A stretch of DNA of 44,896 nt from Escherichia phage vB_Eco_K-02. Every line of letters starts with the position of its first letter. Position 1 is the first letter of the stretch. A model generated the notes under the pieces. That model saw only the letters and a program-made list of their open reading frames with translations. It had not been told where the DNA came from and ran no database searches. This document shows positions 43,650 to 44,896 of the stretch, piece after piece. The DNA is taken from the sequence record PQ436005.1; one strand, 5' to 3'. The position numbers and the translations under genes were made by a program.

Positions 43650-44896
43650 TTAAAGTGCGAAAGTCACCGGGATGTTGATTACTGGTTTAACCACCGGCAT
43701 CTCATAAACTACAGGATAGCCGAGAGCATCAGCCATATGGTCAATGACGCCGTCTTTAGCCGGCTCTCCGTTATCGTCGTATGCCTGCTGTTCCAGCGTC
43801 TTGGCTATCTCAGGACATAAGTGGTCATTAACCCACAGCTTACCTTTTTCCAGCGCGGTGTTCACGGCTAAAACGCGGTCTTTAACCGGGGGGTTGGCTG
43901 ATTTAGCGCGAACATCGAAACCCGCCTGCTGGAGTAATGCAATATCAGAGATTGACGCCGAGTTTGTCTTACGGTTCTTGCCGCTAGCGTCGGGGTAAAC
44001 GACGATGCGGTGGCCTTGTGACTTCCACTTCTCGGTAATTACGCGCACGGTGTCCGGCGTATCGAACAGGCCCTTCAGTTCTGCAACCGCGTGCCATCCA
44101 TCTTTACGCTGCACATACACGGCGCTGGCGTTCTTCGTAACGTTGAAGTCCTGCCCGATGTACAGCGTGTCGCCCGGTTGAATTGTCTCTTTGCTGCGGT
44201 GCTTGCGTCGGTCGTATGCGTAATACACGCTTCCGGATGTCAGGTTGACAAACTCACCGTTCAGATACGCGTTAATCAGTTGCGCCGGGTAAGTCTCAGT
44301 CAGCGAGCTAATGTAATCCGGCGGCAGGAATCTGGCGTTCTCGTGAGTGGACGCCTGCACCATTGAGTAACTCGGCGTCGGGTTCTCCTTGAACTTGGCG
44401 TAAACGAACTTGAACCCTTCCGGAGTCGTGGTGACGGAGATGTGGTTAATTACCCCCGGGATAACCAGACGCATGCGGGCTACGATTTTGTTCCACGCCA
44501 GCTCGGCTTTCTCACGACTCAATACGTCCAGCTCATCCACGACCGCAGCCGCGATTTTGAAGCCGACTATCGAGCCGGGGTTATCCATCGAGCGGCAGAT
44601 AACAGTTCCGAGCACCGTCTTACCGCGAGTGACCACGACTTCTTTGTCGCCAGATTTAACCAGCACATCGAGGCCGAGGAGGTTAGCCGCTTCCTCGAAT
44701 GTCGGGTAGAAGATGTCGCGGATAGCCGGGTAGGTGGGGCCGAAGTAGCCCAGGCGGGTACCCGGGTTCCGGAGCATGAACGTAAGCAGGTCGAGACAGC
44801 CGACAAATGTCTTGCCGCTACCGAAGCCTCCGACATAGGCCTTGTATTTGTTATCGCAATTCAGGAACAGTGCCTGTGGTGCGGATAGCTGAATAC
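43650..44896 (-). CDS. terminase large subunit (N-terminal 2 codons lie across the window junction)
   Basis: Walker A VGGFGSGKTF at 44836..44807 upstream of the track start; frame open to the window end; with circular closure the ATG is complement of bases 4-2. Confidence 0.85.
   Translation of the reverse strand, partial: IQLSAPQALFLNCDNKYKAYVGGFGSGKTFVGCLDLLTFMLRNPGTRLGYFGPTYPAIRDIFYPTFEEAANLLGLDVLVKSGDKEVVVTRGKTVLGTVICRSMDNPGSIVGFKIAAAVVDELDVLSREKAELAWNKIVARMRLVIPGVINHISVTTTPEGFKFVYAKFKENPTPSYSMVQASTHENARFLPPDYISSLTETYPAQLINAYLNGEFVNLTSGSVYYAYDRRKHRSKETIQPGDTLYIGQDFNVTKNASAVYVQRKDGWHAVAELKGLFDTPDTVRVITEKWKSQGHRIVVYPDASGKNRKTNSASISDIALLQQAGFDVRAKSANPPVKDRVLAVNTALEKGKLWVNDHLCPEIAKTLEQQAYDDNGEPAKDGVIDHMADALGYPVVYEMPVVKPVINIPVTFAL

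Follow-up and report, generated by a model that had tools for sequence, protein, structure and literature searches.

Escherichia phage vB_Eco_K-02 is represented by a sequence record (PQ436005.1) of 44,896 nucleotides (nt), which was analyzed over its full length and is referred to here as the window. Its two terminase genes, terS (small terminase) and terL (large terminase), lie on the minus strand at opposite ends of this linear record and meet when base 44896 is joined to base 1. An earlier note on this DNA had taken the window for a complete, circularly closed genome whose ends meet inside the terL start codon; we examined the junction, the course of the map around it, and the likely physical form of the packaged DNA by comparison with related phages.

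Organization of the terS-terL junction

Bases 1 to 4 of the window read TCAT, that is, ATGA on the minus strand. The terL frame, with its stop at 43650, is open to the last base of the window, where it falls one base short of a whole number of codons [(44896-43650+1) mod 3 = 2]; base 1 fills this gap, so that codon 2 is AGT (Ser), made up of base 1 together with bases 44896 and 44895, and the 415 codons running from 44894 down to 43650, including the stop, follow. Translation across the joined ends yields a TerL of 416 amino acids (aa) with the N terminus MSIQLSAPQALF..., which is 100% identical, from residue 1 to residue 416, to the annotated TerL of phage vB_EcoS-phiEc4 (phiEc4). This whole-length match, together with the conservation of the join in relatives, excludes chance as the source of a reading frame that runs across the ends. 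Direct reading and translation thus bore out the earlier observations that the terL frame stays open to the last base, that joining the ends restores ATG-AGT, and that the terL start overlaps the terS stop as ATGA, a 4-nt overlap also found in annotated relatives. The junction does not, as had been proposed, fall inside the terL start codon: the ATG is whole, and the record is cut after the first base of codon 2, at the very point where the terS stop codon ends (Table 1).

TerL contains the Pfam domains Terminase_6N (1.7e-21) and Terminase_6C (4.4e-11); a search of NCBIfam with the same protein returned only a sub-threshold match to the PBSX family. In PHROG, terS matches phrog_3064, named "terminase" (E=4e-72), and no family was found for its protein in searches of Pfam or NCBIfam. 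The longest open reading frame (ORF) that can be called mechanically for terS starts at GTG 585 and encodes 194 aa, and the same start is used in the record PQ429079.1; the ATG at 546 is the start annotated in most relatives and is preceded, 4 nt upstream, by the Shine-Dalgarno (SD) sequence AAGGGGA. The terL start is itself preceded by GAGG motifs at -11..-8 and -5..-2. The locus thus combines an overlap of stop and start with an SD sequence inside the upstream gene, and the arrangement is kept in relatives, as in ATGA coupled gene pairs; since an ATGA overlap is typical of coupled genes, terS and terL may be translationally coupled.

Table 1. Positions of the terminase features and of the repeated elements in the window (plus-strand numbering)
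Feature	Position	Strand	Content or basis
terS (small terminase), 181 aa	546..1	-	ATG at 546, stop TGA = bases 3..1; PHROG match and 546-nt coding sequence of relatives
ATGA overlap	1..4	-	terL ATG (4..2) over terS TGA (3..1); base 1 also opens terL codon 2
SD-like GAGG motifs (gggtGAGGtaGAGGaATG)	6..15	-	within the 3' end of terS, before the terL ATG; sequence context
TerS C-terminal tail, last ~39 codons	1..119	-	part of a putative cassette with terL; sharp mosaic breakpoint at ~119
terL (large terminase), second base of codon 2 to stop	43650..44896	-	416 aa together with bases 4..1
Walker A motif GGFGSGKT, TerL residues 24-31	44808..44831	-	translation of the joined ends
Perfect tandem duplication, 2 x 77 nt	4893-4969 = 4970-5046		repeat scan
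~53-nt element, three copies, ending TTGCAc..CCAATATAATAGgGTACTATTCA	30378-30430, 39613-39665, 41773-41825	+	repeat
GC-rich hairpin followed by a T-run (AAAAGGCCCCgtttGGGGCCTTAGTTTTA), two copies	20297-20328, 32872-32903		where convergent gene blocks meet
Gene-junction repeat GTrACAGAGGAGGATTTGGAATGA	9843-9874, 13023-13054	+	holds an SD sequence and an ATGA stop/start overlap

Closure of the map across the record ends

When a 1,400-nt query spanning the junction was compared with other phage records, at least 41 records covered at least 80% of it as a single place, many of these places being far from the ends of the record. The 120 nt around the join aligned without a gap in five relatives opened elsewhere (CR01, SXAU_B4, G AB-2017, Salmonella phage L223, and fEg-Eco19), and GAATAC/TCATTCC was kept exactly across it in all five. 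A 546-nt terS coding sequence (CDS) with a 4-nt overlap into the adjacent terminase CDS is annotated in G AB-2017, L223, fEg-Eco19, and CR01; the overlapping CDS is a 1,251-nt terL in the first three, and in CR01 terL is split into fragments. SXAU_B4, whose record carries no annotation, counts in the alignment of the join only and not in the annotation of the overlap. Bases 1 and 44896 of the window fall on the neighboring positions 40386 and 40387, respectively, of the circular CR01 record, and the rest of the two genomes is colinear all the way round. No terminal overlap or direct repeat of 8 to 600 nt was found between the ends of the window. The join is gapless in relatives, the window is colinear with CR01, and its ends carry no repeat; the window therefore makes a complete circuit of a closed map and lacks no bases where its ends meet. 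The earlier statement that the record was linearized at the terS/terL boundary is therefore upheld by the adjacent CR01 positions and the gapless alignments, and of the claim of a complete, circularly closed genome the closure stands, supported by the same gapless join and by CR01 colinearity; the window is, however, probably not an exact single unit, on account of the duplication at 4893-5046 that is discussed below. The circle is that of the assembly map and does not in itself speak for a circular virion molecule.

Under the genus criterion of the International Committee on Taxonomy of Viruses, members share at least about 70% nt identity over the genome length. The best whole-genome match of the window was phiEc4 (MZ576218.1), with about 96 to 97% nt identity over about 96 to 97% of the window, and 43,520 of the 44,896 bases align with it in order; the phage collection searched contained no record identical to the window. 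Other members of Kagunavirus (phiEc3, BEU33/35, K-01, and Golestan) show 94 to 96% identity over 83 to 92% of positions 1 to 25000, and the terL/portal end of the window matches 283 phage records, with phiEc4 and the Kagunavirus LM08P1 as the best at 99.9%. The length of 44.9 kb lies within the range of 40.6 to 45.8 kb for the genus among the matched records, and the gene order is that of the genus, terS-terL-portal-head-tail-tailspike with the replication genes on the opposite strand; phiEc4 and CR01 are colinear with the window, and their ORF sizes match. By identity and gene order, the genome belongs to Kagunavirus (Guernseyvirinae), an already well-known type. phiEc4 shares with it the gene order and the TerL sequence and is also opened at the terS/terL overlap. 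Its record, in contrast, runs in the opposite direction and begins 4 nt from this point, at the terL ATG, so that terS is cut rather than terL; the 77-nt segment occurs in it only once, and a few accessory segments are replaced.

Taken together, it is very probable that the window holds the whole circular map, once round, of a virulent Escherichia coli siphovirus of the genus Kagunavirus, rotated to terS, with virion DNA that is linear and permuted and with a 77-nt duplication that is most likely an artefact.

Origin of the cut and its effects on annotation

The position of the cut would be explained by a self-closing assembly that was rotated until its first base coincided with the lower end of the terS CDS. 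Under PHROG-based annotation terS would have been the only gene named "terminase" and would for that reason have been chosen as the rotation point, so that the record opens with the terL ATG and one further base and closes with the remaining 1,247 nt. The chance that a cut falls flush with one end of any of the ~75 CDSs is only ~0.3%, which argues that the position was chosen deliberately. We infer that the rotation point was taken from the one gene carrying the name "terminase," namely terS.

A second record, PQ429079.1 (phage vB_VIPECOTPH05A), has the same cut in the same orientation: it starts with TCATTCC... and ends with ...GCTGAATAC, its first 20 and last 9 bases are the same as those of the window, and its joined TerL N terminus is likewise MSIQLSAPQALF. 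It differs from the window in having only ~91% nt identity in the terL region and in lacking the 77-nt duplication. In that record terS is called as 1..585 from GTG 585 and, by its match to phrog_3064, is the sole gene named "terminase," and the last CDS (44230..45357, 375 aa) is terL starting from the internal Met42, without the Walker A motif, under the name "hypothetical protein, phrog_38319." The window behaves in the same way when it is read as a linear sequence, its ORF list giving terL only as 43650..44777 (375 aa), from an internal ATG at 44777, with the Walker A motif lost. The top PHROG match of the window TerL is also phrog_38319 (function unknown; E=6e-94), ahead of phrog_2, "terminase large subunit," and this best match accounts for the label "hypothetical protein" on TerLs of this type. 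Several Pharokka-style records, including those of Bas73 and EcoPhCCP1, give this TerL the same name even where it is not truncated.

With a 4-nt overlap of terS and terL, any cut between them breaks one of the two genes. Many Kagunavirus records, e.g., those of phiEc4, K1ind1, K1ind3, and fPoEco01, are opened at the terL ATG, and the mirror-image truncation, in which terS is cut instead of terL, is seen in the phiEc4 and K1ind records; in that of phiEc4, terS is flagged as incomplete and the entry bears the label "partial genome."

A 77-nt tandem duplication of probable assembly origin

The 77-nt repeat at 4893-5046 is the sole perfect tandem duplication with a period of 20 to 300 nt in the window. 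At the boundary of its two copies the sequence reads ...AATCTGCGCCGA, ending the first copy, followed by GTAGACCATCTA..., opening the second, and the identity ends exactly, with not one further base matching on either side. Over 4650-5300, phiEc4, phiEc3, and K-01 show 100% identity to the window, yet the region comprises 574 nt in them compared with 651, i.e., 77 fewer, and Salmonella relatives are likewise 77 nt shorter; two copies of the segment were found in none of the 218 matching records. The duplication shifts the frame of a conserved minus-strand gene, and deletion of one copy restores a 146-aa ORF identical to phiEc4 QYU43909.1. The segment is thus both absent from close relatives and disruptive, and the window does not appear to be exactly one genome unit free of artefacts.

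For reads of 150 nt, 77 is the largest default k-mer length (k) of the assembler SPAdes, and circular SPAdes contigs carry an overlap of length k at their ends. The duplication is therefore probably an assembler k-mer overlap left untrimmed at the former contig ends, and a single unit of the genome probably measures 44,819 bp. In such a history, a self-overlapping contig with ends near 4969/4970 would have been rotated to terS with its overlap still in place. The assembly would then have truly closed on itself, and the 44896/1 join would lie in the interior of the original contig, assembled directly from reads. Identical ends of this kind are in routine use for recognizing circular SPAdes contigs (PMC5332604), and repeats of ~79 bp from SPAdes/Shovill phage assemblies have been proven artefacts by Sanger sequencing (Elek et al. 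2023, PMC10438801). Those repeats resemble the one described here in being exact, short, k-sized, absent from related genomes, and disruptive; the repeat in the window differs in being tandem and internal, which is consistent with the rotation of an untrimmed circular contig.

What weighs against an assembly origin is that the artefact status is deduced from the pattern of the repeat, and that k = 77 is a SPAdes default rather than a setting known for the assembly of this record. A genuine duplication in the isolate, arising by replication slippage or unequal recombination and inactivating a dispensable early gene, would be in keeping with the occurrence of tandem duplications in phage genomes and with the nature of the affected gene, a hypothetical accessory gene that is missing from some relatives such as CR01 (uncovered at 4656-5023). 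We nevertheless regard it as unlikely: the repeat is as long as a standard assembler k-mer, with 100% identity between its copies, no second perfect tandem duplication of this period range accompanies it, all 218 matching records lack it, among them the three whose flanks show 100% identity, the ORF that it destroys otherwise equals that of phiEc4, the record was clearly rotated after assembly, and k-sized artefact repeats are documented in phage assemblies (PMC10438801).

Packaging mode

Comparison with relatives supports, with moderate to high confidence, the prediction that packaging is headful and yields virion DNA with terminal redundancy and circular permutation. TerS and TerL would cut concatemers near a pac site and thereafter by headful measurement; permuted, redundant virion DNA makes short-read assemblies close into a circle, and any point at which the circle is opened is arbitrary. 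A headful/pac mechanism was predicted with PhageTerm for phages Shashou, Schulenberg, Snoke, and Sciku (PMC6776780, PMC6763661, PMC6776784, PMC6753286), whose records (MK931438-41) contain the terS/terL allele of the window at ~88% nt identity, contiguous across the join. Their overall nt identity to the group of the window is lower, and, unlike the window, they were opened before terS by convention, with both terminase genes intact. The Jerseyvirus SeF1 was scored as having redundant, random, permuted ends (PMC9409062), no obvious or fixed termini were reported for fBC-Eco01 (PMC9825357), and a published TerL tree places K1G, K1H, and phages G, L, and P next to headful clades (PMC5582158). 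Of the two forms that the earlier note had left side by side, circular or circularly permuted, the permuted one is thus the likely physical form, given the headful/pac predictions for four phages with the same terS/terL allele.

The domain content of TerL points in the same direction. The Terminase_6N plus Terminase_6C architecture is common to the window TerL and P22 gp2, and the 6C nuclease domain also occurs in T1; the window TerL matches neither of the family pairs expected of a cos-type enzyme, GpA_ATPase/GpA_nuclease as in lambda A or TerL_ATPase/TerL_nuclease as in HK97 gp2. It also has no T7-type nuclease domain (PF22530), and no terminal repeat is present in the window, although direct terminal repeats that have been collapsed are invisible in an assembly. 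The P22 pac/headful system is similar in its adjacent, overlapping terS and terL genes (gp3 and gp2), in the Terminase_6N plus 6C domains of TerL, in the link of the C-terminal part of TerS to TerL, and in a circularly permuted genome, which is predicted here; it differs in that the window TerL has no significant pairwise similarity to gp2 and that the window TerS has no Pfam or NCBIfam match.

Several points speak against this assignment or temper it. PhageTerm supplies predictions, made for relatives, and it is from these that the packaging mode of the present isolate is derived. phmmer and blastp comparisons of TerL with the terminases of T1, P22, Sf6, ES18, SPP1, lambda, HK97, and T7 gave nothing significant, and a sequence search of the PDB returned chance matches only and no terminase, so that typing of this TerL rests on the Pfam family level and on the published tree. 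The description of one relative, fBC-Eco01, as having no obvious termini is what is expected of headful packaging without a strong pac signal but is no proof of it. Beyond these points, the passages found in the BASEL paper mention PhageTerm and give no termini for Kagunavirus, and no paper linking Jerseyvirinae to circularly permuted DNA was found in the library searched. A T1-like (Drexlerviridae) TerL was considered as a reference relative and dropped, the T1 TerL being unrelated at the sequence level. TerLs of Webervirus, also Drexlerviridae, are ~39% identical to that of the window, whereas T1, the prototype of the family, has no detectable pairwise similarity, which indicates that terminase modules are mosaic within Drexlerviridae too.

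An alternative is that the phage has fixed physical ends (cos ends or exact direct terminal repeats) that were collapsed by the assembler, in which case the circle would be a by-product and the opening at terS/terL unrelated to the real ends. Short-read assemblers do circularize genomes with cos ends or direct terminal repeats, and such repeats are deleted by assemblers (PMC10438801); the fBC-Eco01 paper mentions a cos site, although in generic wording, and the pairwise comparison of TerL with reference phages is silent. Fixed ends nonetheless appear quite improbable to us, given that four relatives with the same allele are headful/pac by PhageTerm, a Jerseyvirus was called permuted and redundant, fBC-Eco01 showed no termini where cos ends or direct terminal repeats normally give strong PhageTerm peaks, and the TerL domains are of the P22/T4 Pfam type and not of the lambda GpA, HK97 TerL, or T7 nuclease type.

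Two further explanations carry almost no weight beside that of a rotated map of permuted, headful-packaged DNA. That the window is an incomplete fragment with sequence missing between 44896 and 1, for which the split terL speaks and nothing further, is refuted by the gapless join in five relatives and at least 41 records, the adjacent coordinates and colinearity in CR01, and the match of the joined TerL to that of phiEc4 over all 416 aa, and the length fits the genus. A truly covalently closed circle, i.e., a plasmid-like or episomal replicon, would agree with a sequence that closes on itself and is just as remote, since a full set of tailed-phage packaging and morphogenesis proteins is encoded (TerS, TerL, portal, capsid, tail), the relatives are virulent siphoviruses for which headful packaging is predicted, the annotations of close relatives show neither plasmid nor integration functions, and tailed phages package linear DNA.

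A putative TerS-tail and TerL cassette spanning the join

The join lies within a segment in which several relatives diverge sharply from the window. phiEc3, BEU33/35, K-01, Golestan, and SCS92 match the window only from base 119 on, and their TerL is ~55% identical to that of the window. In a windowed comparison with SCS92, nt identity was mostly 98 to 100% over terS codons 1 to 142 (75 to 90% over 361-440), about 30 to 80% over the last ~39 terS codons and all of terL, and again 98% just past the terL stop at 43650; at the breakpoint near 120 it drops from 98 to 100% on the higher side to 30 to 50% on the lower. There are two alleles of this cassette, with ~55% aa identity between their TerLs, and each occurs in both Kagunavirus and Jerseyvirus; tail A (...EIVFSVAEPVGKIVTTNMGEVEE) is paired with TerL A, and tail B (...EVTIKVVSGER) with TerL B.

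The same association was seen in a wider set of the TerL family, which comprised 86 loci (known loci and IMG/VR contigs) and was dereplicated to 39. In the 86 loci, the upstream ORF ends at or overlaps the TerL start, with offsets of -32 to +8 nt and a gap in only one case (+8), and these upstream ORFs finish in a short alternating-hydrophobic motif. Across this wider family, which includes Vibrio and Pseudomonas phages and uncultured viral contigs, the TerS bodies are unrelated and the tail motifs track the TerL clade, with motif types such as xIxFxVxxPVGxVxVT and IxVxVVDARK. Among the 39 dereplicated loci, TerL similarity was correlated with TerS-tail similarity (Mantel rho 0.56, p about 5e-4) and far less with TerS-body similarity (Mantel rho 0.13, p 0.012); for the 677 pairs with unrelated TerS bodies, the Spearman coefficient between TerL and tail similarity was 0.53 (p 4e-51), and physical linkage and a few overlapping codons add to the correlation between tail and TerL. 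The breakpoints cluster at the linker between TerS body and tail and not at the gene boundary. In P22, TerS residues 140-162 bind TerL residues 1-58, and the TerS C terminus is the TerL-binding segment in both lambda and P22 (PMC9611059); breakpoints in the linker fit with this role of the C terminus. On balance, we favor with some caution the view that the join lies inside a horizontally exchanged cassette, made up of the last ~25 to 40 TerS residues and the whole of TerL, with alleles A and B and breakpoints at ~119 and ~43650, which would suggest a portable TerL-docking peptide.

Other repeated elements

Three further kinds of repeat were noted in the window (Table 1). The ~53-nt element resembles a repeated sigma-70 promoter, with TTGCA as the -35 and TATAAT as the -10 sequence, and its copies stand before small groups of plus-strand genes embedded in the minus-strand structural region. 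The GC-rich hairpin with its T-run, present twice, probably acts as an intrinsic terminator in both directions. The gene-junction repeat suggests that the same arrangement for coupled translation is present at two junctions between replication genes.

Implications

Kagunavirus genomes, their overlapping terS and terL genes, and headful, permuted DNA were known beforehand, and opening a record at the terminase genes is a convention; the split terL is therefore a bookkeeping feature of the way in which the record of a known genus with a known packaging style was linearized, and it represents no new biology. Its consequences are those of annotation: any cut inside the 4-nt overlap truncates one of the terminases, and here terL loses its start and its Walker A motif when genes are called on the linear sequence; in the sibling record PQ429079.1, the same cut leaves the phage with no annotated large terminase. 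It would be practical to annotate terL across the origin or to open the record again upstream of terS. Owing to the duplication, the genome is probably 77 nt too long and one gene falsely interrupted, and one copy is probably to be removed, subject to a check of the reads; as probable internal evidence of a self-closing assembly, the duplication also answers the question of circularity without recourse to reads.

The association of the TerS tail with TerL is consistent with established biology and does not constitute a new kind of system. If the cassette is as we suggest, its docking peptide would let one type of TerL combine with many DNA-recognition modules.

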